This document shows positions 2,235 through 53,033 of a stretch of 64,000 bases of DNA, in pieces. The stretch's first letter is position 1. The number at the start of each line of letters is the position of its first letter. The stretch lies in IMG/VR virus record IMGVR_UViG_3300045988_025287, positions 37,747-101,746 of that record; one strand, written 5' to 3'. A model generated the notes under the pieces. It made no database searches, was not told where the DNA came from, and saw only the letters and a list, made by a program, of their open reading frames with translations. Origin of the DNA: a virus. Made by a program: the position numbers and the translations under genes.

Positions 2235-2235
2235 A

Positions 2236-5794: not shown

Positions 5795-5814
5795 TTAATA
5801 AATAATATCAAATT

Positions 5815-6746: not shown

Positions 6747-6785
6747 TAACCTTAATAATTATCAAGTTGTAAACTTTAATTTAAT

Positions 6786-6868: not shown

Positions 6869-6897
6869 CAATTAGTAATTAACATTAAAATCTATTT

Positions 6898-7203: not shown

Positions 7204-7222
7204 CATTTTAATCAATAAAAGT

Positions 7223-7591: not shown

Positions 7592-7616
7592 TTACTAATT
7601 TTAAAACATTATCAAA

Positions 7617-8953: not shown

Positions 8954-8970
8954 CTTATCAAAAGTAAAAC

Positions 8971-9438: not shown

Positions 9439-9439
9439 T

Positions 9440-9538
9440 ATGGCAAAGAAGAATAATGAAGAGCCTCCAAAGGAATTTAAAAAGAAGCCAAAACATAAAA
9501 AGATGGAGCCCTATAATCGTAAGAAAGCATGGAAATAG
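9440..9538 (+). CDS. possible small basic protein (32 aa)
   Basis: ATG..TAG ORF encoding MAKKNNEEPPKEFKKKPKHKKMEPYNRKKAWK. Confidence 0.25.
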   Translation: MAKKNNEEPPKEFKKKPKHKKMEPYNRKKAWK

Positions 9539-9675
9539 ATAATAATTGTCCTACACTTGATAATCATATCAACTGTAGTGAATGTACTCATGAGTGTAAA
9601 CTCAGAATGCAACCAAAGAATAGTAAAGAAGTAGAGGTTCCGCCAGAGCCTCTACTTAATACTATATATTACTAA
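9529..9675 (+). CDS. possible small Cys-rich (zinc-ribbon-like) protein (48 aa)
   Basis: ATG..TAA ORF beginning MEIDNNCPTLDNHINCSECTHECKLRMQ... Confidence 0.3.
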   Translation: MEIDNNCPTLDNHINCSECTHECKLRMQPKNSKEVEVPPEPLLNTIYY

Positions 9676-9712
9676 TTTAAATTGTTAGTAAAATGGTGGA
9701 TTCAGTCAACCC

Positions 9713-9866
9713 AAAGAACTGTTTAAGACTAGAACCCTAATGGAAATTGTCAATCAAGAGTACAATGGACTATACAACGGTCAACCACATTATATGTAGG
9801 TCAGGAGAAGGCAGGGAGTCTCCTGTTGAATAAGAAGTACAAATAGACAGGAACAGTTCTTTTTAA
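9713..9866 (+). ncRNA. structured element closed by an 11-bp long-range helix plus T-run
   Basis: AAAGAACTGTT (9713) pairs with AACAGTTCTTT (9852) and is followed by TTTTAATT. Inner hairpin CAGGAG..CTCCTG. Confidence 0.35.
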
Positions 9867-9917
9867 TTATTACTTAAATTTACTAAAAGATATGAGTAAA
9901 ACAAAAAACAAATTAAA

Positions 9918-10145
9918 ATGTCATATTATATGACCAATATAATTATTACTCCTACTTTATATGAGGAGAAAAGATTAGAAGCTATATCATACTTTAGCAG
10001 ATGTAGTAGAGAAGCAGCACTAAGAATCCACAAAAAGAACAAATATAAAGATATTAAATTGAAGCTAAACACTATAGCAGTAGCTATAATCGAGGCTAAA
10101 AAGAGATATTTTGATGATTGTTCTTTTATTAAGATTATATTATAG
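9918..10145 (+). CDS. hypothetical protein (75 aa)
   Basis: ORF track. TAG stop with TAA one codon later. Confidence 0.45.
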   Translation: MSYYMTNIIITPTLYEEKRLEAISYFSRCSREAALRIHKKNKYKDIKLKLNTIAVAIIEAKKRYFDDCSFIKIIL

Positions 10146-10189
10146 TGTTAAATAAATTTTATTGTTAAATCAATTAAACTGTATTCAAA

Positions 10190-10657
10190 ATGGCAGAAGT
10201 AAAGAAAATGAACATCCTTATAGAGGATGTAAATGGAGAAAACATCCAGGATGTAATCGCTAATTCAAGTAAGGTAACTGAAGAAATTGCAGAAGAAGCA
10301 GCAAAGAAAATTGCTGAACGACGCAAAGAAAAGTTAACGAAAGATTTAGTAGCTGTTGTTCAGAAGAGCGAATATACGGTATCCTCAGCGGTACTACAAG
10401 TTCGTCGTTCTAACAGAACAAACCAACGTATTAAACAGTACCTAAAAGATCTTGCTACACTGAAAGAAGAGATTGTAAGTGGAAAGAAACCTGTATCTGC
10501 ATGGAAAGAGGAAGCTTATAATCTAAAGAAACAGTACGACAAGGATCTTATTGAGATTGGAAAGGATATCGACAAGTCCTTAAATGAACTTAACGAACTC
10601 TTTCCAGACTCTTGGCAGTGGAGATACGATGATTTAGTTCCTAATACTAATAGATAA
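10190..10657 (+). CDS. hypothetical coiled-coil protein (155 aa)
   Basis: ORF track. Lys/Glu-rich heptad-like sequence. Confidence 0.55.
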   Translation: MAEVKKMNILIEDVNGENIQDVIANSSKVTEEIAEEAAKKIAERRKEKLTKDLVAVVQKSEYTVSSAVLQVRRSNRTNQRIKQYLKDLATLKEEIVSGKKPVSAWKEEAYNLKKQYDKDLIEIGKDIDKSLNELNELFPDSWQWRYDDLVPNTNR

Positions 10658-11302
10658 CTAAATCAAAACAAATAAAAGAGGTTCCAAGCTTAGAATCTTT
10701 GAATCAATAGCTTAGTATGTGAGTCGGAAATAGTTCTTTTGAACTCTAGGGCCTGAGGCATACAAGGACCTGAATTAACAGGTCTCATACAGAATTTTAA
10801 ATCAGTTATGGGGAACTACCGTGAACTACTGATCATAAGTCTGAGATCGCGACAATAAGATTGTCCTCTAGAAATAGAGAAACGCTCTAGTCGTGACATC
10901 AAGTTTAGACTGAATAATATGAATCTTTGAATCGTTTAAAGTATCTATACTTTAACTATTATTCGTGTATTATCAAGATCAGTATAAGAGAACTAACCAT
11001 TCTCAAGACCATAGGGTATATGACTTTGGTCGGTCATATACCCACAATAGAGTAGGTATAATACCGAACTGTAAAAAGAATTGACTGTTAGGTCTATTTA
11101 TGCCTTCAGGTGACCGCGGGGCAGTACCGCGCACATCCACTAAAAAAATATAATAAGGGTGTGAAATAGTATTGAACCGTTGAAACAGAATAGAATAGGT
11201 CAATAAGCAGATAACTGGCAATACAAGTTATGTAACGGACTATACTGGTATCGCAGCGTGATAACAGAGTCCAACGGCTAAGCTAATGTCGTAGAAAGCT
11301 GG
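10658..11302 (+). ncRNA. ORF-free structured island ending in a tRNA-like element
   Basis: No credible ORF. The 13-mer GAATCTTTGAATC occurs at 10693 and 10921. Hairpins GGTATATGAC/GTCATATACC and CGCGG/CCGCG. TAGTCGTG motif at 10893. Confidence 0.3.
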
Positions 11303-21134: not shown

Positions 21135-21205
21135 TCTCATGTAGCTCAGTGGTAGAGCCGCTACTATGTAGTGTGAACGCGTTGGTTCGAGTCCAACCAT
21201 GAGAT
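21135..21205 (+). tRNA. tRNA-like gene with aberrant anticodon arm (identity undetermined)
   Basis: Canonical acceptor TCTCATG/CATGAGA, D arm GCTC-AGTGGTA-GAGC and T arm GTTGG-TTCGAGT-CCAAC. The anticodon region CGCTACTATGTAGTG folds as a 5-bp stem with a 3-5 nt loop, not the 5 bp + 7 nt form. Confidence 0.45.
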
Positions 21206-21227
21206 CTAACTTTTAAATACTTATAAT

Positions 21228-32049: not shown

Positions 32050-35000
32050 TTAGAAGTTCATTAATTGATTCTGTAGGTAATTACGTTTTGATTTAGGATC
32101 TTGAGCTTCTACAATACTCTTAAACGGCGTTACTTTGATAATATTCTTAAGTATTACAGGCATACCTTTATATACTCCTCTATCTATTATAGTAAATGGA
32201 GTTCTATCTCCAATATATGAAGCAGGATTAATCAAGTTTATGAAACTACTAATATTATCAAACCAATTGAAAGCTGCTGTTGGAGATTTAATTAAAGCCA
32301 TAAATTCAAAAGGATTATACATAGTACGGAATTCAAATGCTGAACGCATAGCTAAATAAGTTATTGACTATGTTAACCAAGTATCATAATCATCATCACC
32401 ATCAACTACACTAGCTATAACGAGAGCTACTGCTGTAGATGCAGTAATAAGGACTAATTCATTTAATACTCTTCTAACAGCATATTGTTCATACTCTTGC
32501 ATATTATTATAATCAGCTAATAACTATTTAATAGCAAAATGTCTATTAGCTATAATATTCTTCAAGAATCTACCTGTAGATCTATAGTAACCTTCCTCTA
32601 TAGTTTGTAAATCTAAATTATACTGTTTAGGTTTGAATCTATCGTGTAATGCAGAAATCATAAAGTTACGATGTAATACTAAGTATGAAGCCATCGCATT
32701 GGCATGTACAGCAGCTTTATCAACTTCTCGGATAGTACCATCTATTCGTCTACTTATAATTTCAATTCTATTACGTACATCATTTAATAGTCTATCTGTA
32801 ATTAAAGATTTATATTTATCATCTACTACTACATCTCCATTTGGAAGTTCTATGTACGCATCATATAACGTAGTAGTAAGCTATTTAAATTCTACTGCTC
32901 CTTTCTTTCTATCATTAGAGTAGAATTTATCTATATACTATTGCTTTGACATAAAACCTTCATTATCAACTAGACGATAATTATGATAGATACTTAATAA
33001 AGTATGACTTTTAACAGTGTAATCAGACTACGTATATCCAGCAAACCAAAAATTTTGATTAATAGAACGTAATACCTAACTCTAGTCTAATCTATCAAAT
33101 AACTCTTTGTTATCTTTTACTACCTAATTAAGCATAAGTAAATAAGGTAATCTACCTTTAGGATTAGGATTACCTATGTTCTACATCATGTTAGGTAGTT
33201 CTCTAGCAAATTCAGATCTAGCAAAGTTTAAATCTTCTAAATCAAAATACCTACCCATCTTAGCTTCTAAAGTAGTATAAGTAGCATCAGTAAAGAAAGA
33301 AGTACCTATAGACCATAAGTTACCAGATAGGTTTACTTTAGTAACAAATCCTCTAACAATATCTAAGGCTTTACCAAAGTTAATATCATAACCTAATACG
33401 TTACCCTCAATAGGAGTTTTATTTCTACCATACATCAATCTATCTACTAACAACTATGACTATTTATATACATTAGTAGATCCAGGTCCTTTTAATTCTT
33501 TAGAGGTTCTTATAGATAACTATTTTAGTAAATTGAGCATTAATTCTACTTCATCTTGTTTAGCTGACATATTTTTATAATTAGCAGCCATATTGTAGAA
33601 CTGTACTACAGCAGATACAGCATCCGTAGATATACTATTTGTATCTTCTAAAGGAGTAATAAACCTAGTAGGTATTACTTTAATAGGATCTCCATTAGGC
33701 ATAGTAGAAAACTCTTTAACGAAATCTAAATCATCTTCTTTTGTTATAGCAAAATCTTCTACAGCATATTTTAACTTATTTAATATTCCATCTTTACGAT
33801 TCAATACCTACATAAACCTAGCTTCTATTTGTGGCATCATATTTTCATTACTATTAGTGAGGAATGATATAAAACTCATAGCCTCATTCATTATATTAGT
33901 AATTTCATCATATAATTCCTTTACTTCAGGTTTATTCATTACTTCGTTATAAGCTTTACTATTATCATAATATTTCTTGTTAGGCTAAATAGCAGGTCCA
34001 TTTTCATCAAATTCAGGATTGTACCACTCTGAAGATTCTAGTATTTTAGAATATTTACTAGATGGTACTATCTCTGTATACTACTGAGCAAATTCAGGTA
34101 GTGGTCTAAGCTCTGTATAATATGAAGCTGGATGCATAAATCCTCTTACATCTTCATAATGATTATTATTAAACCATTCATTATATGCTTGGACGCCTGC
34201 ATTTCTAGCCTATTCCATATCATGATAATACTATTCTGTATTTACTATTTCTGCAAAATTTGAGAATTTATCAGCTCCTTCTGTTTTTTGAGTAGCAGTA
34301 TATGCATTTGCTATATCTTGATCTAACTATAATAAGCTTCTTTTCTCATCATCGCTTAATGAATTAATGTCAATCTTATTGGTATGAGGATCCTTATATA
34401 AATTTTGTAATTGTCTTCTCCTATTACGCAGTTTCTAATAAGTACTTTCGGGATCTTTGTTAGCAGAATCAGATTCTAGGTTAGCTATTCTGTCATAGAA
34501 ATCTTGAGTATACCTAGTTACAGTATTTCTTTGTTTCCATAACTATACTTCAGCGGTTTCACCTCCATATCTTTCTATTACTTTAGCTAAATCCTTTTCA
34601 TACTTATCCTTATCAATATCATATTTAATATGTTTATTTACTTCTTCATGAAAAGCAGTTAATTCATCTGCTATTACTCTATCTATTCCAGTTTTTTCAC
34701 TACCGTCTATATTAAATATATTAGATAGTAATCTTTTTTGTTTACGTAAAGATTCTAGCTATTTGTATTCTGCTTCTGTAAGTAGGTTTTCATACTATAT
34801 ACCGTTAATAGTCATAGATTGTGTAATACCATCTATCATACTTTGGATCTCTCTTTCAGCATCTCTAGTCTTCATAGACAGCATCTTATTTCTAAGAATA
34901 TAATATTCAGCTTTGTATCTCCTTTGAGCTCTATCTGCATACCACTTAGTTAGTTCATCAAACCACTTCTTTTGTATATCTTCATTTTGCGGTAACACAT

Positions 35001-36726
35001 ACATGTTATTATTGTCTTTAGATATACCTAATTTTTCAGCTAATTTATCCATGAACTATCTCTGGTCACGCTTTAATTGACCATTATTCAGTGGGGATAC
35101 CTTATTACCAGAGTATGTACCATCGTCTAATTTTTCATATAATAGCTTCTATACATCATTACCGTATTTTTCTTTGGCTACACTTACTAATTTAACTAAT
35201 TTAATACCAACTTCCATAGTTTCTCTATCTGTGGCATTTTTAGCATCATTAAGCAATTTGGCTATAATCTATTGCACAGCATTATTACTATTACTAGACA
35301 TACCGAACCAATCCATGAACAAACTAGAATCATGTTTAGGATCATCTAGCCAGTTAATAGTATCTTGTATCATATTCTGTGGCATACCTAATTCTGTAAG
35401 ATACTATTGTAATGCACTATAACCTTTAGATTTAAGTACATTTATAAACTTATTATTAACATTGTCTATTTGTTGTGATAAGGTAGTAGCTAATTCTTTT
35501 ATATAACTATAATCAGGTTTATCTTTGAGTATATCAGTAGTATCAAACAGATACATTATATCATCCATAAGAGGCTTATAGAAGCCAATATAATCATTAG
35601 ATAACTATCTAATCTGTTTAGCACTAATATTCTTTGTAGGTTTACTTAAGAATTTAATACTATCGTTTATAGATTCATCAATATGCTATAAGAATTGATA
35701 TATACCTTCCTCTGTTTCAGAATTAGCCAGTTGCTATATTGTAGTCTATAGTTGATTCCACACTTTAGGATTCTTAACGGTGTATCTCTTAATAGAATTT
35801 AATCTGTCTTTTAAACCTTTCTATATCTTTTCATATAACTTAGTTACTTCGTTAATTACTCTCATATCCTCTTGAGGTATTGGAGTAAAGTCTTCTGGAT
35901 TATAAGTTACAGTTGACAATAATAACAATTCAGACATCAAAGGCTCACCATTTTTATCTATAGTTTTTATTGAAAGATTATTATTGAGATAATCTTCTAA
36001 ATACTCACCTTCTTTCAATACATACATTGGAATACCTCGAACATTACTGATAGTATCATCTATACTCTATTTCCACAATCTACTTTCATGTTCTTTTCCA
36101 CCTCTACTGATATTCCTTTTAATAAAATCTTCAGTTGACAAATTTATGATTTTAGTAAAATCTTGAGGAAATAATTTTAATAAGGTGTGAGGAGAAGCAA
36201 ATAGTACTTTATTCTATTTTTTTGCTTCTTCTTTAACTCTATTCCATTCATCTGTTATGAATTTTATATAATCTGGATGTTTTTCAGGATATATTAGATA
36301 TTCGTTTCTTGCAATTTTGTATTCAGGTGTTCCTTTCTTAGTATTAGAATGCTATTCTATCCATTTATCTCTTTTTGAATTAAATTCTACATCCCAGTCT
36401 ATAAATTTATCTTTGAACTTACCTTTTTCAAAAGAATATGTTTTACCTATTGCAGGATGGCCGAATATAACATCTGTAGATTTAATCTAATTATTATACC
36501 AGTTTCTAAAACTGTTAGAATATATTACAGCTTTAGCTTTAATAGCAGCGTCTCTATCATTATTATATTGTTTAAGTAAATCCTAAAATAGTATAGAAGG
36601 CTCCCCATTTGGAGCCTTATCTATACCATGACCATTATTCAAATCCCAGACAGTATATGCAACTTCTGGTACAACTCTTTCTAGTTCCTTCCATTCTGGA
36701 AGATTTTTATTTGGACATTTATACAT
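32050..36726 (-). CDS. large virion-associated protein (1,558 aa) with N-terminal P-loop; 36 in-frame TAG
   Basis: Fragments 32050.., 33181.., 33520.., 34795.. and 35821.. share one frame. I read the whole frame and found 36 TAG and no TAA/TGA. ATG at 36726..36724, TAA at 32052..32050. The N-terminus contains FGHPAIGKTYSF (Walker A-like). Confidence 0.75.
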
Positions 36727-36737: not shown

Positions 36738-39700
36738 TTATAAATTACATATGAATTTTCTTAACGCTTCTTCAAGTTTATCTTGAGTATTAACATTATC
36801 TCTTGCCATCTACTGTGCAAATTCATTTAAATAGGTCTGTCTTTCATCAGCTGTTAAATCATCTAACGTATCTAATACTTCAGATATTCTTTTATTACCT
36901 TGGTCATACAAGGCCATTAAATCTACACCAGTAAGTTCCTTTACCGTAGATTTTATGTTATCTACAGTTTCATCCTCTCTGAATGTATTTTCATATACAT
37001 CGTTTTCAGTATCATTCTCATCTGCTTCTTCAAGTACAACACCTTCAACACTATCGTCAGTATCGTCTTGTTCGTACTCAAATATTCTATCCTGCTCAGC
37101 TATAGCGTAATTCATACCAGAATATGATGGTAATTCTCCAATGTGATGCATATACGCTTTATCTTGCTCAAAGTAAGTTCTTTCTACTTCATCAGTCATA
37201 TCAGATAATGCATCAAGATTATTCAAAGCTTCAAAATAATCCCATTCATTTTCCTTATTGAATTCAAATTGAGTTGATAAACCGTATTCTACGATAGTAT
37301 GACCTTTATAGCTGTATCCTTTTTTGGATATCAAACCATATATAGGAGTATATAAAATTCTACCAGTAAGTTTACCTTTCCATGTTCTTTCTGGTTTATC
37401 AATATAACCTATTAATCTATATACATGCCAATTAGCAGGTTCAAAACCTAAACTGTCTTTTATCTTAACATAAGGAGGGAATATTGGATATTTTATATCA
37501 TCTACTGTTACCCAGTTTAATGGTTTAATAACAGCAGCCTACATATCAGTTCTCTATCCAAATATAATATTTGGCATAACTGCATCTTTATTAAGGCTTA
37601 CAGATCTTAATGGAGCTTGATATTTACCACCATACATGTCTACAGGTCTTACAAGCTTATCATTCTACCAATTATTCAAGAATAAATCCTCAATGTCATT
37701 ATAAGATTTATCTGCATTATTAACCATCTGATCTAATTTACCTTGAATGAATTGAGTATAACCTATATTAATCCTTTCGCTATTAGGTAGGTACTGAAAG
37801 AACGCATTCATTACTGTATTATCTCCAGATGTGTAGAAAGAGTATACGGCTAAATCTCTGAACAATCTCTTAACTGAAGGTTCGGGATCATCTAATAACT
37901 ATCTCCAATAGTTGATAAGATTATTTGCTTGTGCCTAATCTGCATTTAACTATTCTGATCTATCAATAAAGTCTAATCCTTCCTTATTAATATTAGGTAT
38001 TAAGTAGTTAACGAAATCATTAGCTATAGTACCATCATTATTTAGTAAGTGACTTAATCTAGGATTACCCTTTAGTACTTCCTACTTAAATCTATACAGT
38101 CTATTAGGTATAGAATTACGTCCTTGGAACATAGTATTTAAGTCTATATTGTTATCCTTAACATATTGATTAAAGAATTGACTCTTTATCTAAGCTTCCA
38201 TACCATTTATTACAGCGCTAAGTAATTTAGAATCAGCATTAGCGGCTCTACCTACTAATGATAAAGCTATATGTTTTTGATTAGCAAATTGATCAGTATT
38301 ACGTAGTAATAAGTTTCTAAATATAGATGAACCCAAAGGTATACTATTTTCTGTTTTTGTACGAATGAATGTTTCATTAAAGAATCTAGTAACCTCACCT
38401 TTAGCGAATTTACTATTTTCTTCCATGTCTAACATACCTTTATAATATATATCTTGCTCAGCAAAAGTTTTACCAGTCTTCTTAGTATCAATCTTTGAGA
38501 ATTTAACAAGATTAGCTAAATCGTCTGCATAAGGTTTAAGAGCTAACCAAGCGTGGTATATTCTTACTTGTTCTTCATTAAAGTTTTTAGAATCTTCTGG
38601 ATTAATCTTTAATAACTATCTTGTTCTTGATGTTACTTCTCCTTTATCGTCAATATAAGTTCTAAATAGATCTTGATATTCTGAAGCTTTAGTTTTATTT
38701 TTTCTGTTTATATATTCGTACTTTCTACGTAACTTTTTAGTAGGATCATATTTATCTAATACTTTTTCAATAGCTTCTTTTTCAAGTTGGGAAGGAGTCT
38801 TAGTTCTATCAATACCGTACTTACCTTTAGTCTTAAGTACTTCATTAGCCATCTCTACTAAGATAGGTTGTCTAACAAAATAGAATGTTTGAGCGCCTTT
38901 ACCCGTACGTAATAAGAATGACACCATATTATATGTCCAAGCATTAACATTAAGCTTAACAATGTAAGGATCTTTAGCTATATCTACGAACGCATTAATC
39001 ATAGCAGATAACCAGTCTAATATGCGACCTCCTTTAGGATTACCTATTGTAGGATAGTCATATATTCGTCCAACATCTTCTATCTATAAAGTTCCTGTAA
39101 ATTCATTGCTCTACATTTTAATACCTACTAACTAAGTAAGGATATGATGAGCGTTATTCAACGCAAAAGGACCAATACCAGCTTTACCGCCAGTATATTC
39201 CGCCTTTCTATCTTCTTGGTATCTAGGAGTATATACTTCAAATGGTTCTGGATGATATGAACTAGTGCCTTCAATATCTTTAAGTATTCCCTTAACTGTA
39301 TCAGTAGCATCATCAATAGAACCTTTTAACATAGCTGAATTATCCTTAGTAAGAAGAACTTTGATATACATTTTAATAATGTCATTCTTATAAGCACTGG
39401 CTACATCTTCTCTAGTTAATGCACCGCCGTGAGTTATAATTCCCCCGTTTTTGTTAAAGGAATATCGAGCTACATATAGTTTATCAATATCGAAGTCAGA
39501 ACCTGTAAGCTTAGTAAATCCTTCAGGAAGCATAATAGTATCACCCATAATCTCAGGGAATACATCTACGAATCTTAGTGCGGATATTGATGCAATAGAC
39601 TGTGTAGGAATACGATAACCAATTCCGGTAGCATCTGCCCTCTATCCTATGATATTATGATCTAATAACCATTTTCTAGCTTGTTTAAATGTCATCTTAC

Positions 39701-42700
39701 TGTAGTTAGGTATCATATGTTTAAATAGATTTATACTTACTACAGAGTCCATAGAACCATCCTTATCATTAATCATGAGTAATGGTTTTCCATCATTGAT
39801 CATATCTTCTGTAATAACATTCTAGCTAGTAGCTTCGAGTCCAAATGCAGATCTTTGAATGAAAGCTCCACCAGGCATATGAACATCAATAACTAGTTTA
39901 TTAATCATAGATATAAATCTACTTTCTAACCATTTATTATCAGATAAAGCAGACAAAGGTATTACAAATGCATTATTCTTAGTTTTAAGACCAGATAATA
40001 CATTATCATTAGCGTCAGATTCTCTAGCGTCACGCTCTAACATATTACCTAACGCTGTAACATTTATATTACCGTCTACAAACAATTCATCTACTATATC
40101 CTATCTACCCATATTAGATAAAGTATTCAATGCTCCCATTACTGTATCATTGATTTCTCTACCTGTTACTTGAGAACCGTCTGGACCATATAAATCATCC
40201 TTACGTAAATTAGATAAGTTTACTTTTAAGAACTATGTACCAGCCATCTGTTCCGGATGAGTATGAGGATTAGTCTCTAACTGCTGTCTGATATATTTAA
40301 ACTTCTACCTATATGTTACGAGTTTACTCAAATCAGTAATAGTATTACCCTATCCGCTTTCTGCCCAGTCTACTATAGAAGCGGATAATACAGTCTAACC
40401 GTCTTTAAGTTCTATTTCACTATCTTTAGCCTTTCTATAGTATGCAGTAGGAGATTCTGAACCAGCTTTAACTGCAGAATCAAACATAGCCATATCAATA
40501 GGATCATTAGGATCTACCATTCTGTCATATAAAGCTTTAATATCTCCAGTAGCTACAGATTTAAATAACGGGAATAAAGCCATCTTATTAAAGTAAGGTA
40601 TACCTAATCCATTTCTAAATCTGGTACCGAATGCTATATACTTCATAGCATTTAATATAACTTTATTAGCTTCTGCATATAACTTAGGATCAGATTCCCA
40701 TTTATCTGCAGTATCAGGATCAGTCAATACTTCAAATGCTCGTTTAATGTCAGCATTCCATACACCACGCATTCTAAGTAAATCTCTAGTCATATTAGGA
40801 CTTATATATACAGCTGCATCAGCCACATTAACTCCTTTCTTATAACCAGCTACAGCTACTTTAGCTGCTTGTTTAGCAATTTTAGTTTCTTCAGGGTAGG
40901 TATTTTCTATATCACGTATGCTAAGATCTTTTACCTCATTCCAAGCTTCTTCTCCTAACATTTCCTATATAGTTTCTTTTATATTTGCCCTATAGAACAA
41001 ACCTTCATACTCATGGTATTGTTTATCCATGATTTCGTGATCTTTAAGCTCTGTAACTACATATTCATCACGCATTGGATCATTAAAGAAGTCTAATCTA
41101 TTATTCAAACCAGTTGATGTCAAAGAACCTAAACGTTTGATTTTGTCAATAGATACGTCTGTTATACCCTCTCTATCATACTTTACTTTGTAATACGCAG
41201 GTGAACCACTAAATAGCTTTTCTACTTCTTGAATAGATATTATACTATTCATCACATAGTCAGATATCATATCAAATACTGCATATGCTTCCGCATTAGC
41301 ACTATCCACACTCTAATATCTAGCTGATCTTTCTGTTACTACATTATCATCAAGTAATACATTACGTATACTCCATATATTACCTTGATCATTCATAGTA
41401 ATTAAACCAAGATCTCTAGCATATTCTAATTCTTTCTTTACTCTACGATTAATTACTCCAGCTAAGAAAGCCTTTTGTGTTTCTGGAGAAGTATTAAAGA
41501 AATAGTCTTTAGCTAATTGTAAACACTCTTTAGCTGATTTGGTAGGATCATTAAAGTTAACAAAACCTTTATTAGTATATATACCGGTCAAGAATAAGAA
41601 TCTAGCTCCATTGCCTTCCAAAGTTACAGTGTGCTTAACTCCATCTTTATCTTTATAATCATATTTATTAGGAGTATGGAAGTTTTTAATACGTCTAGAT
41701 GGTTCGATCCAATCATTATTTATAGTACCATCATCGTTATAATGTAACCCAGTCTCTGGATTATAATGATTAGGATCATCATCTATCTATCTTAAGCACA
41801 ACTCTATTTGGTTTAGTTCATCGTAACAATAACCTAATAGATAGTCCATAACTTGTTCGCCATACTGAACAAAAGTTTGACCATTATTATTATTGAATCT
41901 AATAGGTTCGTGTGGTAATGTTATTCCTTTAATGAAATGATATGTTTTCTTATCTGCTACTGTAGGGAATATTATTCTATTATTAAATACAGCTGTCATT
42001 TTAGCTATATAGTCCTCTCTATCAGTAATACCGTGGTAATCTCTACCCTTATCTCCAGTAGTAGTATCCTTAAAGTTAATAAGGGTTTCCATTGATAGAT
42101 TTCTATTACCTCCTCTAACTGCCTGCAATATAATAGAATGTTCATTATAAACTACAGATTCTAATTCCTAGAATACAGTAGGATCTGATACTATCTCATT
42201 AAGTCTATCTTTAGCAAAATTATTCTGTGATACCATATAATAAGAATTACCATCAGGACCATAGCTACTCAAACTATTATCTGTAGCATGTGTAAATGCA
42301 TAATAATTAGCTAACTCTTTAACGTAACCTATATTATTCCATACCTATGTAGGATCAACAGTTACTTCATTCACTTTAATTTCTTTAATAGTACTATCAT
42401 TATTTATAGCATTTTTAATTGCTTCAAGTACACTTACTATTTTCGGAATGCCACCGAAATTAACAGTTGAACTGGAGAACTCGCTGATAAGAGTAAATGC
42501 ATCTGATTTAGGATTACCATATCTACCAGATAATAACATTTTGTCTATGGTAGGTACATCAATACCGATACCTATTACATTAAACATGTTAACTAAATAC
42601 TTCTTAAGCATTTTCTAGTTAGATGTTTCGTGCAAATCAATATTTCTATCTCCTATCTTAAGTATACCTTTATTGTTTCTAAAGGCAGTTATAACACTAT

Positions 42701-45700
42701 TAAAATTCTTAATTACAGTATCAAGAGCTTTTTTAGATCCTTCTTCGGCTATTATTACGCCTTCTTTATCGTATTTAAATAATCCAGCATTAGTAAATAA
42801 TGCTTGAGACCATACTTTAGGGTAAGTAGCTGCCTTAACATCGACAGTGTTGTCTACGAGTTCATGCTTAATAAAACCAGTCTCTGGATCTTTACTTATC
42901 TTAGCAGTTACATAATTGTTTATATCACAGGTAACCACTGTCTCTATTTTGGTAAGCATAGCTTCAGCATCAGCAGCCTTAACTAAATCTTCTTTCTGAT
43001 TAGAATCTTTAATCAGTCTGTTAAGTTTAAATAATAAAGCAGAATGAAAAGCACTACCATTTTGAGCATAAGTAGCTACTTTATCAACTATATTAGCTAT
43101 AGTACGACACCCGGACAAATCTTTAAGTATATTGTCCCATGCAGTTTTAGCATCAACAAAATTAGCAAAATGAGTAATAGGATCTATCTTCATAGACATG
43201 GAGCCGTCTGGGCTAATTTCATATAGAGGTATAGTTTGGAAGAAGAACTTAACCTCTGCAGGAGCATTATCCTTAATGGATATATTCATACCTTCTACTG
43301 TATGCTATCCTATATTAACTCTTTCCGCTCCCTCTTCTATATCACTTATAGTTTCATCCTCATTACGATCTATAGCTCTAATACCTAGTTGTTTTAATCT
43401 AGTAGCTATAGTTGGCATAAATACAGTCTCATATTTCTCAAGAATCTCATCCATTACAGGAGAAGGATAAGTTCTAGCTTGCGCTTCTATAATAAGCTTA
43501 AGCCTTTCAAATTGTTGATTATCCTCAGACAATGCTGAATATTCAATATTAGGCACTGCAGTTTGTCCATTTACTCTAAAGAATGCATATGTGAGAGACT
43601 TGATTATATTATCAAATTGATTGTATTGAGTAATTGTTTTTAACTCATAACCAGCTACTTCTAGATTAGGACCAGATGTACCATATATTTGTCTAAATCT
43701 ATTTACATTCTCTTCGTTAGGCTTAATTCCATAGAACTTTCCCCTATTAATATCAGAATATATCTTAGCTAATGCATATTGACCAGTTCTAGCCCACAGC
43801 TTAATAAAATCTAAAATCCTTCTAAACCAATTCTTAGTATCAAAAGCATAGCTTCCAGCTTCATTTAACATAAAGTCTCTAAATTGATCTGCTAAAGCCT
43901 CTTCTATTTGAGAATCCGTCATTTGAGGATTCTTTTTTCTCATTCTATTATATATTCTTTCTCTTCTTTTATTATCTATCAAGAGTAAAGAAACTCTATG
44001 CCATGCTTCATGATACTCTGTACCTACAGGGGCAAAATTACTAATTAATACAGAATCTTCTATTACTCTACCTACTACAGCTGTACCAGCTTCTGTAACA
44101 TCTATTATAGTAGGAATAATCTGAGGAGATGTTCCAAAAGTAGAACTTAACCATTCTTTGGCTTGTTCTGGATCTATTCTTTCATTTACCCATAGAGTAT
44201 TGTCTTCCTATACTTCTACCTCCATATTAGGGCCTCGTTTCTTCCCATCTAATATAGCAAATATATCTGCCATATTCACAGAAGTCTACTTACCACTTTC
44301 ATCTGGTAGAGTAAATACTTTAGTTTTAATAGGATCTTCGTATTCTTTCTCTACCTTTTGTTGAGCTTGCTACTGTATCTTTTCAGCAGCTTTATCTGCT
44401 AACATTACATCATCAACATATATATTAGAATCCCATAACTCATCAGCTATATCAGTAAGTAATATACCTTGTTTGATATACCATCCTAAAGTACTCATAC
44501 CGTTAGGATGTTTACTGTCGATAGTTTTACGACCATTACTTCCTGGAATTATACCAAATTCACTCTAATCTAACTCTATTAAACCAGGGATAATAGTAAG
44601 CTTATCTATGTTGCTATTCTTTAAGAACGCAGCAACTGACTTAAATCTAGGATCTGTTACCTGTGATTGTAAATCTCCTCCTAAGTAATAAGTATTAAGT
44701 GCTTGTTCATCTATATTCCAATGGAAATTAGACATTATATAATTTTTAGCTTGTTGTCTAATATCCGGTTGACTAACTAAGTCACTTATACTATAGCTAG
44801 TATTACCTATTACTAAGTTGCCATTATCATTTACAAAAAATTGTTTTCTTTGTTTGGCTTGAATCTGTTGGGGAGTAAATCTGGTATCATTAGGATTTAC
44901 AGCAGTATGAGGACCAAAGTTTACTATAAAATCTAATATATCAATAGGTCTAATATTAGTCTTAACTCCTTTAGCATCAGTATAGAATTGATCGTTACTA
45001 GTAACTAAATCTAATATCAGATCCGCTATTTGAGGTTTATCTGCAAATGTCTAATAGTTCAATTTAACTAGCTTAGTATCGTATTCTCCATCTAATCTAG
45101 GAACTTTTAATACCCACATGGGTTGACCAAGACTACCACCTTTTACAGATAATATAGTGTTTCTTAATCTTATTACTTCATTGTTTATAGGACCAGTAGT
45201 TATACCTATCTACGTATTATCTGGGGTTATCTCAAATGGATCTTTTATAGTTAACCATGCTGAATCTAGTAAGCTTCTATTCTTAGGGCTGTTATCTGGA
45301 TTTTTTTCATTTCTAAATCTTCCAGTAGTAGCTCTAAGAGCTGTAGGAACTACCTCAAGGTTTGGATTCTTTTTAGTTTGTTCATACAGTTCTATAATCT
45401 TATTTCTCAATCTGACCAGATTATCTACAATCTTAGTCTATTTTTCAAACGGTAGCCTATTAAACGGGCTATATCTACCTCTAAGACCACCTTCAACAGT
45501 TTTAATAGCTCCGGCGTATTTTTTACCTTTGTAATCAAATATAGCATAAATAGCAGGTTCTACTTTTCCGTCTTTATTAGTATAATCGTGTACTTCAAAG
45601 TGAACCCCGTTGTTCATTACTTCAGGTATAAAGTCAGGTTTACTACTTACTAACGATAAATCATCATCATTAAGGTAGTCTTCCATTCCTTGATATCTCT

Positions 45701-48700
45701 TAGATATTCTAATGTAATTACCATTAGCATCTCTAGAACCTTCACTTAATCTGTAATTAATTTCATGAGAATATGGGTCTTCATCTTTATCATATGTTAA
45801 TTCCTATGTATTTACAGTAGTGGGCTATTCTACTGGTATCTATTCCTGCTGAGGCTGCTGTGACTGTTGCAAACTACTAGCTGCTTCTGCTCCTAGCCAA
45901 TCACCCATTATACTAGCTAATGTTGGTAATTCTGCTTGAGTTGGCTGTTCTTGTGTAGGTGTAGCAGGTACTTCTGGAATAGCATCTGCACTCTTAGTAG
46001 GAGTATCGTCATTCTGCTTTACTACTTTCTATCTTTCTTCTGATTTTATTTCCTCTAACTTTTCTGCAGCCTATTGCTCCTCCTATCTAGCTTGCTTCAT
46101 TTCTTCAAGTCTAGCAGGAGCCTAATCTTTTATACGTTGCGCTATTTTACTGTGACTCTAAATAATAAACTTTGACAATTCTACTTGAGAGTTAAGAGTG
46201 TCTGCTAGTCTATTAGCTCTACTAGAATTACCATTAGTATACAGCTCTTCTTCTAACTACATTCTAGTATCTCTCATATCTTCCCATAGATTCTTTAATC
46301 CGTCTTCAGAATTCTCCATAAACTTAGATGCGCTATACTCCTGATAATTCTACCTATTTGGATATAGGTAAGAATAAATATCTTTCATAGCTTGACCTGC
46401 ATTAGCATACGATTTACCAGCTTTGTATTTAGCACTAGGTACAAGAACAACATCTCCTTTAGAGTTCCTTTCTTGTTCAAAGTATTTATTACGTATTGCA
46501 CTAGCGTTCTATCTTGCCTCTGTTATATCTTCTGGTTCAGTTGCTACATCTTCAGCAGTATACTACGCTTTACTTTCTGCAGCAATGGTAGGTTCAGGAT
46601 TGGTAACTTCAGGTGTTGTTGTAACCTCTACAGGTTCTGGAGTTATTTCTTCACTATCTATTACTTCATCCTCTTGCTTCTTTCCAGAGTATAAATCATC
46701 CAACTCCTATACAAAAGTATCTTCCTGATCTTCCACATCTAGCCACTTATTGATTTTTGCTATAGCACCTTTAGGACTATTCATAGCATCTCTCTCAGCT
46801 TTAGCTCTTTCAAAATCAAGATTTGCTATAATTTCTTTTTCTTGTAAGTCCTTAAGAGTCTGATGAAGGTTAGGAACATTTAATTGTTCCTCTGTGATAC
46901 CTAAGTCTTCTGTTTCTTTACGCAGCTATTGATAAACATCATCTATCTGTTGTTTATCTTTATTTAACAAATGTTTAAATTTGATAACATCAGACTTAGA
47001 AGTACGTATGCCCGTATTTTTCTCTAATTCAGACAGCTTGTTACCATTACTGGTATAATCAGTTATGAGTTGATCATATAACTCAGTCTGTGATTTTAAT
47101 CTGATTAAATTACGAATAGCTACTTCTTGATCAGGGGTTACATCAGGCTTAATAGAAGATATATACTGGGATATTTCAGGACTATACATTAACTAGTCTA
47201 CCTCTGATGTTATATTAGCTCTATTATTAGCAGCTTCAGTAAGTAACGCTTCGTGGTGTTCTTTTAATGCTACAAATACATCATACTCTTCTGTTCTAGG
47301 ATCTATTCCTGCTTTCATTGCTTGACTCATAGTGACAGGAGAAGTATACATATTTCTAATGAGTTCTGCCCTCTTTCTCTCGTTCTATATATCCTGTATA
47401 TCTAATCCTTCTGTTCTAGATACTATATTTTCAGCTTCATCAAAAGAACTCATAAGGTTATCATATTTACCAGTTCTAATGAAACTACTATACATGGCAT
47501 TCTTTCTAACTCTATCTTTAGCATCCATCTATTCTGCATACAAAGCAGATACAAATTGGTCAGTAGGTAATTGATTATTTATTTGTATTGCTGCAGATGG
47601 AGCACCGTATACAGTAGTCATTAAACCTCCCAACAATGCACCGCCTTTAAAGTTTTCCATGAATTCCTAATCATTTGAATACACAGGATCCCACGGAGTA
47701 ATAGCTGCAAATACAGCACGAGCTCCAGTACCAATGTTACGTATAAAACTCTTTACTAGATTTGGATCAGCATCAAAATTATTGTCTATATATCTCTATC
47801 CCTTAATGTACTGAACACCTTCTTCAGCTCCTTCTAGTATACCATATACTAATATACGACCACCTAAATCAGTAATGGCTCTACGTTTAGTTCTCATAGG
47901 TAATCTACCTACATTATCTAAGCCAAAAGAAGTTATATCGTCTATTCTATTAGATAATTGCTCTTGCAATCCCTTCTTTAGTTTAGTACCTTTATCAGCT
48001 AAAGTCTTTAAACCTTTTACTTTTTTAGCCATAGAACCTATAGGTACTACTTCTATTGCTTGTTGGGCTATATCACTAATCGATAAAGCCATGTTATCTA
48101 TATATAGAGATCTCAAACCTTCTCTATTATCTAGCATAGCTTTATTAAACTTTCTATTATTTATTTTGATATCTCCAGAAAGTATACGGTCATATACATA
48201 CTCATCATCATTAATTTGATCTGCGCTATAACCCTATTGAGCCATCTTAATCTTAGCATCAGCTAATACACTTTCGTCTACACCTAATTTCTTAGCTGTA
48301 TTCTTTACTGACTGCTTGTAGTTCTAGAATACTTCAGCTTTAGACTCTCGATCTCTACTGTATAAATTAGATCCTATAGATATTAACGCAGCAACTCCTG
48401 CCACTAATGGATTACCAGCACTGGCAGCATAATAAGCAGATATAGTACCTAACAAAGAAGAACCGACAGAAGCAGCACTAGATCCTGCTAAACCCGGTAA
48501 TTTGAATAACCAAGTGTCTATGTCAGAATAATCCATACCAGGCTTTTCTTTGTTCTTTCTATAATATTCTGAGGTTAACTTTTCATCAAATCTCTTAACT
48601 TTATCAGATTGTATTTCGGCATCTCTGAGAGAAATTATCCTCTTATTATAGATATTATCATCTTTCATACTACCGTCAAGTCGAGTAATGGGATTGATTT

Positions 48701-49226
48701 CTTTATCTATTTCTATTAACGCGTTATCTAGATTGCCTTGTTTAAGACTACCTGTAATATAACTATTAAGATAGTTATTGTTAAATTTACCAGATATAGC
48801 AGTATCGTATGCAGATTTATTATTAACTTGCATTAATGATGCTTCCTACAGCTATTGTTTTAATTGTTCATTAGTAGGATCCTAGCTTAACTATCTAGAC
48901 AATTCTATTACTGCTCTACTAGAGTTTATATAATCTTTTAGGCTGATTAAGGTATTATAATCCTAATCAGCCATCACATACTCTCCTAACTTAGCATCTC
49001 TTTCAGTTTGCGCTTTTGTTAAATTCCAATCATAGAATGCGTTAGAAGCCCAATCTGTGAAACCATAATTGTCAAGTGCTTCTTCGTAATTAGCATCTGG
49101 ATTAGCCATACGATGCATATACTCCTCAGTATTAATCTGAGGAGCTATCATAGCATCATACATTGCTGTTCTTTGTCTAATACTATCTATTAATGATGTA
49201 TCATATACTTTCTTTTTCTTTGCCAT
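36738..49226 (-). CDS. giant 4,162-aa virion protein containing a crAss-type RNA polymerase module; 60 in-frame TAG
   Basis: 19 track fragments share one frame and each ends in TAG. Every gap read in that frame gives 60 TAG and no TAA/TGA. ATG 49226..49224 is preceded by in-frame TGA 49268..49266. Ends at TAA 36740..36738. GSDFDIDKLY at about 39.5 kb is a DxDxD loop as in two-barrel RNAPs (phi14:2 gp66-type). Confidence 0.75.
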
Positions 49227-49228: not shown

Positions 49229-51202
49229 TTATCTGCCTAATAATTGTTGTGCTGACGTCTGGTATTCATCTTTAGCTTGAGAAGATCCTCCAATACCACT
49301 AGAAGATCCTCCTTGCCATCTTTGATTTACTCTTTGCCAATACTCTGATGATGTATATGAGTTAGGTAATGTTCTATAAGCATCTACTTCATAATATTCA
49401 ACGCCATCTTGTCCTACTACTTCAGTTACTTTAGAAGCTCCAAATTGTTGCTTAAGAGCGCCTTTAGTAGTCTATCTGCCAAATGGCATAGAATAACTAG
49501 AAGCCATTTCACTAAACAACACAGGATAATTTACCCACATACCTGTTCCTAATGATTCTTCAATTCTTTCTTTAGGTATTCTAAGTTTGCCGGATAAAGC
49601 CATACTTCCAGGCCCTGTCTTTACTACTTTATTATTTGGTATAAATTGAACTCCACTTAATTGACCACTTTCTACTAACTCTCTAAACGGAAAACTAGTA
49701 TCTCTTCCTATACCGGCATCTCTACGAGCTTTTCTACCAGGTCCTTCATTACCAGCAATCATACTAAATACTGTTTCCGGTAATAAGAATCCTTCTGTAG
49801 TATTAAATTGATATCCCTAATGTTTAATACCGTCACTATCTTGTATTTCTGTAGATAATGCTCCAACACCCGTTAATAAGTCGTCTTTATCGAGTAATCC
49901 TACTGGCGCACTTACTTTATTAAGCGCAGCATTTACTCCTTTTAGATAAGATTTGGTACTAAATTCTTTACTATCCTAACTAGTTAACGGGGAGAAACCA
50001 GCTACTCTTTGGAATTCATCTCTTACTACATGCTTACTAGCTAAACTAACCATTTGATTCTATAACTGTTGAGCTCTATTACTAGCTGCTACTGCTGTTA
50101 CATAGTCTTCATCGTTTCCAGTTTGTCTGTATCTAGTGCTGTATTCATTAGCTGCCTACACCATAGAACCATATTCATTCTGCATTCTATCTATATTGCG
50201 TAGACCTTTACGTGCATCGTCTGCAATTTTACTGTTAGGATACTTAGTGATCAAACTAGATATATAGTCTCTATAACTATTAAACTTATTACCTATACCA
50301 GACATAGTGTTTCTAGTAATACTATCATTTAAAAAATCTAATCTAGTAGGATTAGGTCTTATTACTTCTTCATTACTTCCCCTGTTACTTTGTTTAGCCA
50401 TAGCTAACCAATATGGGTCTACAGTATCTTGATTCACAATTCTATCTCTCTGTGAGTCAGCTATCATTCCTACGAATCTCTATCTAGCTAATTCAGCATC
50501 CCCTCCAGAAGCATCTAATGCTTCTCTATAATACTGTTGACCCTAAGGCGTACTAATTAAATCATTAAACTTAGCATCTGCAATATCGTACAATGTATCA
50601 TAAGTAATGCCTACTCTATTGTATTTGACTCCATCTTTCCATACAGACCCTATTGAACTAGGTTTAAGATTACTAAAGTAAGGATTAGCTAGTTCATCTG
50701 CAGTCATATAACGTAATGGGGTAATTTGATCAAATACTCTTTTACTACCTAAAGTATCATAATTAGGTATATTTGCAGAATCCCAGCTTCGTTTATATCT
50801 TCCTTCTGCTTCCATTTTAGCTCTCATCTCAAGACCTGCCCTAAGATTATCAGCACTTTCTTTGAGTAAACTTAAAGATCCGTAATCAGTATTACTAATT
50901 ATAGATTGTAAATTAGCACGAAAACCTGCATCTTTTAAGGCATCTGGATTAGAAACTATTTGATTAATAGCATCTTGTACATCTTGACGATTAATAGTTA
51001 AATTGTAGTAATTCTATGTGTCTATTGCAGATGGTGATCTAAATTCTCCAAACTTTTGTAACTAAGTATTAAACTATTGTGCAGCCTCATCTACAGCTTG
51101 CTTCTACGCTGCCCCTATTCTATATAATTCACCAAAGTTAATAGGTACATATGTATTTAATATAGGAGCTTCCGCTGCTCTATCATATCTATTAGCCTAC
51201 AT
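49229..51202 (-). CDS. virion protein (657 aa); TAG as codon 2
   Basis: Fragments 49472.., 50156.. and 50543.. share one frame, with only TAG between them. TAA at 49231..49229 lies 2 nt before the next ATG. The best start is ATG 51202..51200 (ATG TAG GCT..), which overlaps the upstream gene end by 11 nt. The start is uncertain. Confidence 0.6.
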
Positions 51203-53033
51203 TGTTACCTCCTTTTCTTAACCATTTATTAAACTGTCTAATAGTATCTGCTGTATAACCAGATTGCAAAAATGGAGCATACATAGCTAACATTGCATTA
51301 TCTCTAGCTTCCTGATTACGCATTAACTCTCTATTCTGAGCCCATTGACTTAACTGACTTAAACCAGTCCTAAGTATATTTCTAGCAGTAGCTCTATTCT
51401 GAGCATTAGCTTCATTAGCCATATTCGTAGCATTAACCCATTGCTGTCCTAAACTATTCATAGTATTAGCATAATCACCTAAGTACTGATTGTTAACATT
51501 ACTTTCTTGAGATCTTAAACTAGCTATAGCTCTGTCAGTATTAACAGCTGACTGTAATCTATAAGCTAAATTAGCTCCAGTACTAGTATTAATCTGACTA
51601 GCATTATAATTACTAGTAGCTCTATTACGGTTTAAATCTTCAATAGCAGGACTAATATCATATCTACGTCTACGCATCGTATTACTAATACTAGTAGCAT
51701 AAGGATTATATACTGCATCAACTGTTTCAGGTCTACTAGTAAATAGATTAGACATAACAGGAGTTAAAGAAGCTATCCCTGACAATGCGCTTCCTACTTT
51801 ATCAAATAATTTATTACGTCTGTCTGCTCTAGTTTCTCTATAACTAATATCATTAGGTGTAGCACTAGGAGACTCTACAGTATCATAGTCTGTATCATAC
51901 ACAGATTCTACTGTTGGAGCGTCATACCAAGTAAACGGTAATTCTGGTTTACCTTCATCAATTAATCCTGCACTTGTAGAAGGAGTAGTTCTGCGTCTCT
52001 TAACTGAAGTACTACTAACACTTGTAGGAGTTGTAGTTGATGCAGTTTGAGTATTATTAGGGTTAACAGGTATATGATACCACTGATTATTACCAGTTCC
52101 CCACTGTACTCCAGCCCCCCATTTACGATTAGGGTTATAGATAGCATCTACTATTCTATCTCCTAAACCAGGTTTAATCTCATCACCTAAAGCAGCTGCT
52201 TGTATCTACTTAGTCTTAGGTTTAATACCTTTACTTTGTTTAACAGATTCCTGCATAGCAAATAACTAATCATGAATCATATTATTATTCATTTCATTTA
52301 ATTTTGCTGCATTCTCTGCAAATCTGTCATTATACTTACTTTTCTTTTTTGCCATCATTTTCTCACCAAGTTGTGCAAATGTTTCTTTTCTACCAGGTAC
52401 TTTAAGCTTATCACTTAATACTCTACTGCCTTCAGGTAAACTAACTAAATTACTATCAGTAGGATTATTATTCTCTGGTACTTTACTTATACTTCCATCT
52501 GGAGTCTATATTAATTCACCATCATCTACGTAAGCTAAAGAGGAAGACACTCCTCCATTAGCCATAGTATCTGTATTCATCCCTATCATATCTTCATATG
52601 CTTCACTTTGTAGGTAATTAGTACCTTGTACAGCAGCTCTATTACTATAAGCATTCTTCTTAATTGCTGCTCTCTTTCTACGTAATCTTCTATTACCGAA
52701 TGCTCCAATTAGACCACTACCAAGACTACCTTCATCATAATCTGTGAACGAAGTCATTTCAGCTTCTTCACCAGATCTGCCTATTAGCCCTATACCAGCT
52801 CCTACTGCAGCACCAATTGGACCAGCAACTTGGAAACCAGTAGCTGCACCACTGGCTATGTCACTTACAGATTGTGCAGCAGCTTGCCCTCCTGTAGTAG
52901 CGTTAGATTTCTAAAAAGGAGTAGTTAAAGTATTTAATATATCAGGAGCACTTTCAAGCATGTTATTCCCAATTTCTTTGAATTGAGTTCCAAATGCATA
53001 TGCTGGTACTTTTGTTTTCTTTTTACTTTTCAT
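51192..53033 (-). CDS. virion protein with Gly/Ala-rich N-terminal region (613 aa)
   Basis: Fragments 51192.. and 52506.. are joined in frame with only TAG between them. ATG 53033..53031 is preceded by TAA 53042..53040. N-terminus MKSKKKTKVPAYAFG..GPIGAAVGAGIGLIG. Confidence 0.7.

Follow-up and report, generated by a model that had tools for sequence, protein, structure and literature searches.

We analysed a 64,000-nucleotide stretch (hereafter the window) of the IMG/VR virus record IMGVR_UViG_3300045988_025287, covering positions 37,747 to 101,746 of that record, with focus on a giant open reading frame (ORF) at 36738-49226 on the minus strand. Our comparisons support that the source is a gut crAss-like phage, and with a probability of roughly 0.88 the ORF is a late "transcription block" gene of a member of the Suoliviridae (delta-group), in which a cargo protein (module A) and a virion RNA polymerase (RNAP; module B) are encoded as one polypeptide. 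A first-pass annotation made from the sequence alone had suggested a fusion of ejected cargo with the RNAP, and our data support that interpretation. The parts of the giant gene, as predicted by comparison with other phages, are the following (residue numbers refer to the giant protein):

36738..49226, minus strand: giant gene, 4,162 codons plus TAA, fusion of module A and module B
43587..49226, minus strand: module A (residues ~1-1880), cargo protein, counterpart of crAss001 gp47, p-crAssphage gp45 and phi14:2 gp67
48357..48500, minus strand: Gly/Ala/Ser-rich hydrophobic segment (residues 243-290), kept among relatives with varying length
46527..46709, minus strand: linker 1 (residues ~840-900), acidic and Pro/Thr/Glu-rich, net charge ~-19 per 100 residues
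45777..46124, minus strand: linker 2 (residues ~1035-1150), Glu/Gln/Lys-rich, then Pro/Thr/Gln-rich
44307..45749, minus strand: middle domain of module A (residues ~1160-1640), conserved, no Pfam or PHROG match
43722..44174, minus strand: zincin-like HExxH domain (residues ~1685-1835), from motif conservation and a gp47 profile match
43998-44012, minus strand: HEAWH (residues 1739-1743), with Glu1776 as candidate third ligand
43557..43721, minus strand: A/B junction (residues ~1836-1890, approximate), where gp47 ends and the gp66/gp50 N-terminal alignment begins; no cysteine
37257..43559, minus strand: module B (residues ~1890-3990), gp66-type two-barrel virion RNAP
39483..39497, minus strand: catalytic DFDID (residues 3244-3248) within TGSDFDIDKLY (3241-3251)
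38910..39230, minus strand: bridge helix and trigger loop regions, aligned to gp66
36951..37109, minus strand: acidic tail (residues ~4040-4092), accessory-domain insertion site in relatives
36741..36950, minus strand: conserved C-terminal ~70 residues, ending ...KFICNL

Reading frame and TAG codons

The reverse complement of 36738-49226 is 12,489 nt long, begins with ATG and ends with TAA, and contains 60 in-frame TAG codons and neither TAA nor TGA before the terminal TAA. The first-pass claim of a single frame from ATG 49226 to TAA 36738, with TAG read as sense, is thus confirmed. A TGA at 49268, 14 codons ahead of the ATG, is the closest upstream in-frame stop. With TAA plus TGA calculated at ~0.058 per codon from the base composition of the strand, the chance that 4,162 codons are free of both is ~1e-108, and with ~80 TAG expected and 60 seen TAG is used freely and not avoided. 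When aligned with the corresponding protein of the Suoliviridae phage cr114_1, 24 of the 60 TAG positions are opposite Gln or TAG, as are 63 of the 134 CAA/CAG codons; because the two classes match similarly, TAG in the giant gene appears to act as a Gln codon. TAG-recoded sequences were compared with Gln at the TAG positions; word-based homologue searches gave only fragments truncated at TAG.

The number of in-frame TAG codons varies between 0 and 2 in the plus-strand ORFs (1-32 kb, early/replication) and reaches 60 in the minus-strand ORFs (32050-64000, structural/cargo), all of which have many, and the GC skew changes sign at ~32 kb. Such an early/late split has been described for TAG-recoded crAss-like phages (PMC7886860; preprint 10.64898/2026.08.21.746148), and TAG-to-Gln recoding of late genes is documented for the family (PMC7886860). 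The window shows what is expected of late-gene recoding (genetic code 15), i.e. TAG confined to late genes and aligned with Gln. Three tRNA genes were predicted in the window (ARAGORN and Rfam), none of them a canonical suppressor. One, at 21135-21206 on the plus strand, is His(atg) according to ARAGORN and scores 46 bits with Rfam; its anticodon arm has 9 nt compared with 13 in the model, and the odd anticodon-arm sequence, UACUAUGUA, includes CUA.

Polymerase and cargo modules and their distribution

When residues 1201-4162 were searched against all PDB sequences using phmmer, 6VR4 (phi14:2 gp66) was the sole significant entry (E=3.9e-35). The match comprises four stretches over gp66 ~500-1680 with the TGSDFDIDK motifs superposed, and no N4 or T7 chain was among the PDB matches, which gives no sign of homology to N4-like/T7-type polymerases. 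BLASTP to gp66 gave 1,402 aligned columns (E=4e-44), and the C-terminal ~2,100 residues of the giant protein are homologous to gp66 (identity between gp66 and module B ~23%). The TGSDFD(I/V)D motif of the gp66 family is present, and it aligns with gp66, crAss001 gp50 and p-crAssphage gp44. The GSDFDIDKLY at ~39.5 kb, which the first-pass annotation took for the Mg-coordinating loop of two-barrel RNAPs, corresponds to residues 3242-3251, and its DFDID aligns with gp66 D1361-D1365, so that RNAP similarity around this motif, which was to be checked, is indeed found. Every Asp of the gp66 DFDID is needed for gp66 activity (preprint 10.1101/2020.03.07.982082). The ORF, described as about twice the size of gp66 (2,180 amino acids, aa), is 1.9x its length.

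Landmarks of gp66 given in the same preprint were transferred to the giant protein by MAFFT alignment, and the giant residues are approximate:

Connector: gp66 1095-1238, giant ~2974-3122
Bridge helix: gp66 1529-1559, giant ~3333-3363
Trigger loop: gp66 1598-1636, giant ~3401-3439
C-terminal region: gp66 from 2100, giant from 3982

The gp66 segments that form the two double-psi beta-barrels, bridge helix and trigger loop align with segments of the giant protein, which would place these elements in one chain. The gp66 authors describe gp66 as a virion RNAP that transcribes early genes, and they mention fused polyproteins; a cleft-blocking element resides in the N-terminal part of gp66 (preprint 10.1101/2020.03.07.982082).

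For module A, residues 1630-1836 match the C-terminal 250 residues of crAss001 gp47 (BLASTP 3e-9; profile E=6.6e-21), and in both proteins the HExxH motif sits ~100-200 residues before the module end. Seven divergent sequences including gp47 (22-62% identical) share an invariant G, H-E-A-x-H and a Glu 33 residues downstream; H1739, E1740, H1743 and E1776 are accordingly invariant, as expected for the HExxH plus downstream Glu of a zincin-like metallopeptidase. An AlphaFold2 model of the domain based on 35 sequences, of moderate quality (predicted local distance difference test, pLDDT, 56; a single-sequence AlphaFold model of residues 1674-1973 reached 38), has a sheet followed by the HExxH helix and the Glu helix, an order of elements that fits a gluzincin. 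Sub-threshold Foldseek matches of this model were ACE2, an M61 peptidase, lethal-factor-like, IrrE-like and phage metalloprotease structures, and against BFVD the significant matches were orthologous crAss segments only. Searching the HExxH alignment profile against PDB sequences gave nothing significant. Outside the Suoliviridae, detectable similarity of module A is limited to this C-terminal domain. The phi14:2 counterpart, gp67, was assigned by gene position. Of the crAss001 proteins, gp47, gp49 and gp50 were detected in virions, gp47 by mass spectrometry, and are treated as capsid-stored cargo (PMC10172136).

Upstream of the HExxH domain, the middle domain is 53-62% identical to cr114_1 and 25-35% identical to distant Suoliviridae, and the identity between the giant protein and cr114_1 is lowest at linker 1. 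The first-pass annotation had described one low-complexity linker at 45.8-46.7 kb; the low complexity stands, while the single linker resolves into two, separated by an ordinary ~135-residue segment. There are no tandem DNA repeats under linkers 1 and 2. An antisense ORF opposite linker 2 (45773-46165, plus strand, 130 codons, 10 TAG) is almost certainly a low-complexity by-product and not a gene. N-terminal hydrophobic segments are likewise present in gp47 and gp67, and the Gly/Ala/Ser-rich segment at residues 243-290 is a candidate membrane-active element.

Searching 50,697 phage records with tblastn gave full-length collinear matches in Suoliviridae, where the gene is annotated in RefSeq as a single coding sequence (CDS):

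cr114_1 (YP_010112977): 4,272 aa
cr113_1 (YP_010112838): 4,328 aa
cr118_1 (YP_010110531): 4,946 aa, zero TAG
cr10_1: 4,460 aa, zero TAG
cr52_1: 4,464 aa

These five are collinear with the giant protein over its full length and have the same flanking genes. Each CDS has a single HExxH at ~1,720-1,990 and a single DFDxD ~1,500 residues further on, and three of the five recode TAG; the long frame is independent of recoding because the cr118_1 and cr10_1 genes have no TAG. The closest relatives are 63-65% identical in their polymerase half, against 39-43% over the first 1,200 residues. A query across the junction (residues 1600-2400) gave one contiguous match in ~25 genomes, and in crAss001-like phages matches to the HExxH part only. 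A DFDxD-bearing ORF is present in each of the 80 related IMG/VR loci, its motif falling at ~residue 3,060-3,430; where complete these ORFs encode 4,036-5,401 aa, and ~20 loci have zero TAG. Six of the 80 share 96-98% identity with the window across the polymerase core, and the species is therefore already in a public collection.

The features of a Suoliviridae A-B fused gene, i.e. HExxH, DFDxD ~1,500 residues on and a separate module C gene next to it, are all found in the window. Splitting of the ORF in relatives was to be looked for according to the first-pass annotation, and we found the ORF continuous in every same-family genome examined, including standard-code genomes without TAG. From these comparisons the A-B fusion is the family-wide normal state in Suoliviridae. 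The giant fusion gene is not new; it is annotated in RefSeq and discussed in the literature, and RNAP genes up to ~6,000 aa have been described as a distinguishing trait of the crAss-like phages (2023 review, PMC10136315). That the window has such a fused, TAG-recoded polymerase gene, with the same CDS in RefSeq of related genera, therefore matters little in itself.

The neighbouring genes on the same strand are:

32050..36726, minus strand: module C, the downstream gene, 1,558 aa with 36 TAG, homologous to phi14:2 gp65 and crAss001 gp49
49229..53033, minus strand: two upstream genes, 657 and 613 aa, cysteine-free, in the position of crAss001 cargo gp45 and gp46

The neighbourhood thus comprises a 1,411-aa gp71 homologue, two ~630-aa proteins, the giant gene and the 1,558-aa gp65/gp49 homologue. 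This order equals phi14:2 g071-g065, based on BLAST and phmmer matches to gp66, gp50, gp47, gp65, gp49 and gp71. Synteny suggests that the 657- and 613-aa genes may be counterparts of crAss001 gp45/gp46 (BLAST not significant). Module C has a hydrophobic segment near its C-terminus (residues 1417-1445).

With phi14:2 the window shares the catalytic DFDID and the g071...g067-g066-g065 gene order, and regions of the giant protein align with the gp66 connector, bridge helix and trigger loop. In phi14:2, however, modules A, B and C are three genes (1,797 + 2,180 + 1,421 aa), the first two of which are one gene in the window, and its HExxH lies near the N-terminus of gp65 instead of at the end of gp67. 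The three modules also occur in p-crAssphage (Carjivirus communis BK010471; gp45/gp44), crAss002 (gp32/gp33) and cr8_1, where, unlike the A-B fusion of the window, A stands alone and B and C form one protein (4,070-4,422 aa); the HExxH domain in module A of the p-crAssphage type is ~200 residues from the C-terminus. The BK010471 product names are "RNAP associated protein fused to zincin protease" and "RNAP catalytic subunit fused to unknown RNAP subunit". In crAss001 the counterpart of giant residues 1630-1836 is the gp47 HExxH domain, that of the polymerase part is gp50 and that of module C is gp49; these are three genes with gp47 on the strand opposite gp50-gp49. The gp47 HExxH match, the phi14:2 gene order and the separate genes in phi14:2, crAss001 and p-crAssphage together bear out the proposed fusion of ejected cargo with the RNAP. 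Flavobacterium phage FpV4 and several marine contigs have A and B fused as in the window. FpV4, which has been cultured and belongs to none of the named Crassvirales families, carries an A-B fused gene of 4,287 aa (L013 8601-21464) in which DYDID replaces DFDID and a second HExxH near the C-end resembles that near the N-terminus of phi14:2 gp65.

Competing explanations for the fused chain

From N- to C-terminus the giant protein consists of a Gly/Ala-rich hydrophobic segment, helical regions, two flexible linkers, the middle domain, the zincin-like HExxH domain, the RNAP, an acidic tail and, last, a conserved peptide that has one cysteine. By analogy with the phi14:2 and crAss001 work, it would be made late, once TAG is decoded as Gln, and stored in the capsid together with module C and the pair of smaller cargo proteins. 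Ejection through the tail would follow, either before the DNA or along with it and with the chain partly unfolded, after which the polymerase would transcribe the early genes, which are TAG-free and lie on the other strand (window 1-32 kb).

Some results weigh against the reading of the ORF as a cargo-polymerase fusion in a recoding phage. Pfam and PHROGs scans of the whole giant protein matched no family in any part. Profile hidden Markov models of residues 1-850, 850-1160 and 1160-1640 had no significant similarity to the phi14:2, crAss001 and p-crAssphage proteins; because nothing detectable links these parts to gp47/gp67, orthology of the rest of module A is argued from gene position, the HExxH domain and the hydrophobic segments. 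The zincin fold is not confirmed, with no significant Foldseek match of the HExxH model against PDB. Finally, a canonical CUA suppressor tRNA is missing from the ARAGORN and Rfam predictions for the 64 kb window, ~1/3 of the genome being outside it; some Suoliviridae are reported without a suppressor tRNA (PMC7886860; preprint 10.64898/2026.08.21.746148).

The missing suppressor tRNA would also suit an artefact, with TAG a true stop and the giant ORF a chain of small genes or a pseudogene, as would the broken frame in a 95%-identical Logan contig, SRR14141812_64 (L011), where eleven single-base deletions relative to the window (contig positions 1923-15574) divide the giant gene and its neighbour into many frames. 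The giant frame itself is broken by eight of them. Nearly all of these deletions, however, are beside short A runs, as is typical of sequencing error; they look like sequencing or assembly errors, and the contig was rejected as evidence for split genes. The comparative data refute the artefact, which we regard as extremely improbable: cr118_1, cr10_1 and the ~20 IMG/VR loci with zero TAG keep an uninterrupted ORF, TAA and TGA are absent over the entire length, TAG positions align with Gln, and late-gene recoding is documented.

As to the fate of the fused chain, the protein might be a processed polyprotein, with the HExxH domain at the A/B junction cutting the chain in the capsid or after ejection and freeing a polymerase of gp66 size. 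The invariant HExxH...E precedes the junction by ~100-150 residues, the gp66 authors suggested that fused forms are cleaved and that proteolytic activation is possible, and zincin peptidases recur in virion-delivered polyvalent proteins including the N4 virion RNAP (vRNAP; PMC5512222). However, no cleavage site or product has been observed, the domain is kept in gp47 and p-crAssphage gp45, which are already separate from B, and the fold lacks support from structure comparison, and we regard processing as possible but somewhat doubtful. The domain might split A from B, cut back B at its N-terminal part or act on host targets; A-B separation cannot be its sole job because it is kept where A and B are separate genes. 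A tentative alternative is that the chain stays uncleaved, with the N-terminal hydrophobic region anchored in the host envelope and the linkers holding the polymerase near the entering DNA. The layout of hydrophobic segment, linkers, HExxH domain and polymerase is consistent with such tethering, which has been proposed for N4 gp50 with its membrane-associated N-terminal domain, polymerase and C-terminal HExxH domain (PMC13434306), there with an unrelated polymerase fold. The hydrophobicity of the giant N-terminal segment is, however, modest, with one window barely >1.4 (Kyte-Doolittle). The N4-type vRNAP/polyvalent proteins are also huge, cysteine-poor, virion-packaged and ejected, and combine a polymerase with an HExxH peptidase-like domain, but the N4 polymerase is T7-like and single-subunit whereas that of the window is predicted to be two-barrel, sequence similarity is limited to a weak alignment with the N4 gp50 HExxH region (hhalign probability 9%), and HExxH is before the polymerase in the window and after it in N4.

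Terminal cysteines, tail cassettes and early-region RNAs

The cysteine content of the giant protein is 0.14% (6 in 4,162 residues) compared with 1.4% in the other window ORFs. Such a low content is typical of ejected proteins, and cysteine depletion is documented for the N4-type ejection operon (PMC11445570). The protein begins with MAKKKK, has no cysteine before residue 2040 (module A has none) and ends ...FICNL, where Cys4160 (nt 36747-36749) is the sole cysteine outside residues 2040-2568; in module C of the window the sole cysteine is at position 4 (nt 36715-36717). The positions in the reference phages, in all of which that we checked the pattern held, are:

Module A: at the C-end, usually its only one (gp67 C1797/1797; gp47 C2339/2341; p-crAssphage gp45 C1956/1957)
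Module B: at position 3-5 and at the C-end (gp66 C3 and C2179 of 2180)
Module C: at position 3-6, none at the C-end (gp65 C3; gp49 C5; window gene C4)

Among split B proteins (~2,200 aa), two terminal cysteines and no others are the usual case. The B-C fusion p-crAssphage gp44 starts with MSC and has no C-terminal cysteine, and in the A-B fused FpV4 protein the sole cysteine is the second-last residue and the next gene begins MAC. In crAss002 gp33 (L012 12627-12725), Met33-Ser-Cys equals the MSC start of p-crAssphage gp44 and many IMG/VR relatives; the annotated start is, judging from this alignment, probably 32 codons too far upstream. Among 240 IMG/VR loci, 215 were usable (a Suoliviridae-like set of 80 and a diverse set of 135), with these counts:

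Free B C-end cysteine (giant C-end in the fused set): Suoliviridae-like 80/80, diverse 72/74
Module C beginning M-x-C: Suoliviridae-like 76/76, diverse 63/67
Free B N-terminus M-x(1-5)-C: diverse 102/105
Module A C-end cysteine: diverse 91/93
B-C fusion without C-terminal cysteine: diverse 55/55
A-B fusion without N-terminal cysteine: diverse 19/19

The exceptions are truncated ORFs, a wrong choice of code by the counting script or "MC..." starts. Residues flanking the terminal cysteines vary widely, each class comprising 45-67 different terminal peptides. The control ORFs, taken from the same loci, are 10x richer in cysteine, yet have one within the first 7 residues in 7% and within the last 12 residues in 23% of the cases. 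We regard as solid, on the sequence counts, that cysteines are conserved at the free module ends (A C-end, both ends of B, C N-end) and absent at fused junctions. A lipobox, CaaX-type lipidation and an intein were considered and rejected (no signal peptide, a distance from the end of 1-11 residues, and no intein blocks).

At a little under even odds, the pattern would mean that disulfides in the virion link A, B and C head to tail, one between the C-end of A and the N-end of B and one between the C-end of B and the N-end of C, with fusion replacing one disulfide by a peptide bond; alternatively, B could be closed on itself and A linked to C. Structural disulfides are present elsewhere in crAss001 virions (crAss001 atlas). 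If true, such a disulfide string would provide a covalent A-B-C chain for 1:1:1 packaging and ordered ejection, which would fall apart in the reducing cytoplasm or be cut there by the junction-adjacent zincin domain. The terminal-cysteine rule thereby offers a testable model for a question left open by the crAss001 structure, i.e. how cargo of ~700 kDa is arranged so that it can be packaged and ejected in order. The pattern has no mention in the gp66 preprint, the crAss001 atlas or full-text searches, which did not cover the final Nature gp66 paper and the 2018 Nature Microbiology paper; it is apparently undescribed and priority is uncertain. Together with the cassette-bearing tail described below, it is the part of the comparison most worth pursuing.

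The window protein is among the shortest Suoliviridae giants and is without the helicase tail of cr118_1 or the SLOG tail of cr10_1 and cr113_1. The 95%-identical Logan contig has an in-frame 321-codon insertion at giant residue ~4077-4091 (L011 11941-12945) that encodes a SLOG-like domain and an NADAR domain (PF08719, E=5.7e-16). In IMG/VR genomes of the same species the giants are 4,327-5,002 aa with mixes of SLOG-like, NADAR and a second HExxH, and the tails of more distant relatives add SF1 helicase, cpYpsA, DUF1848 and DUF7831 (tail cassettes are shown by loci L015-L020, L047, L058, L063 and L083). Cassettes differ among genomes that are 95-98% identical, and the window protein, having none, is a bare version; DVYENTFREDET of its tail matches the joint between two cassettes in relatives and looks like the joint left between two missing cassettes. 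Judging from these alignments, the C-terminal tail is a modular hotspot for insertion of accessory domains. Swappable effector domains are thus found in relatives of the giant as in polyvalent proteins (Iyer et al. 2017), and the cassettes fit the "polyvalent protein" concept (PMC5512222, PMC9503650). With a tail where NADAR, SLOG, helicase and other domains are swapped, the ejected polymerase becomes a carrier that delivers probable counter-defence enzymes.

Because the tail domains vary, giant orthologues have odd product names in RefSeq. In NC_055896, NC_055872 and NC_055888 (L002, L003, L005) these never mention RNA polymerase and read "DprA-like DNA recombination-mediator protein", "exonuclease V"/"DNA helicase" and "nuclear pore complex protein-like protein"; the DprA-like and exonuclease V/helicase names derive solely from small C-terminal accessory domains, and names without such a basis in the tail are spurious. 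For annotation, the giant gene should be called with code 15 and named a cargo-protein/virion-RNAP fusion, and not "DprA-like", "exonuclease V" or "nuclear pore complex-like".

Finally, structured RNAs above the Rfam gathering score cluster among the early genes of the window (4879-11261, plus strand):

4879-5029, plus strand: RAGATH-6 (Rfam)
5124-5346, plus strand: RAGATH-7 (Rfam)
6270-6366 and 8141-8276, plus strand: two Hatchet ribozymes (Rfam)
9702-9862, plus strand: RAGATH-9 (Rfam)
11080-11261, plus strand: permuted tmRNA (Rfam)

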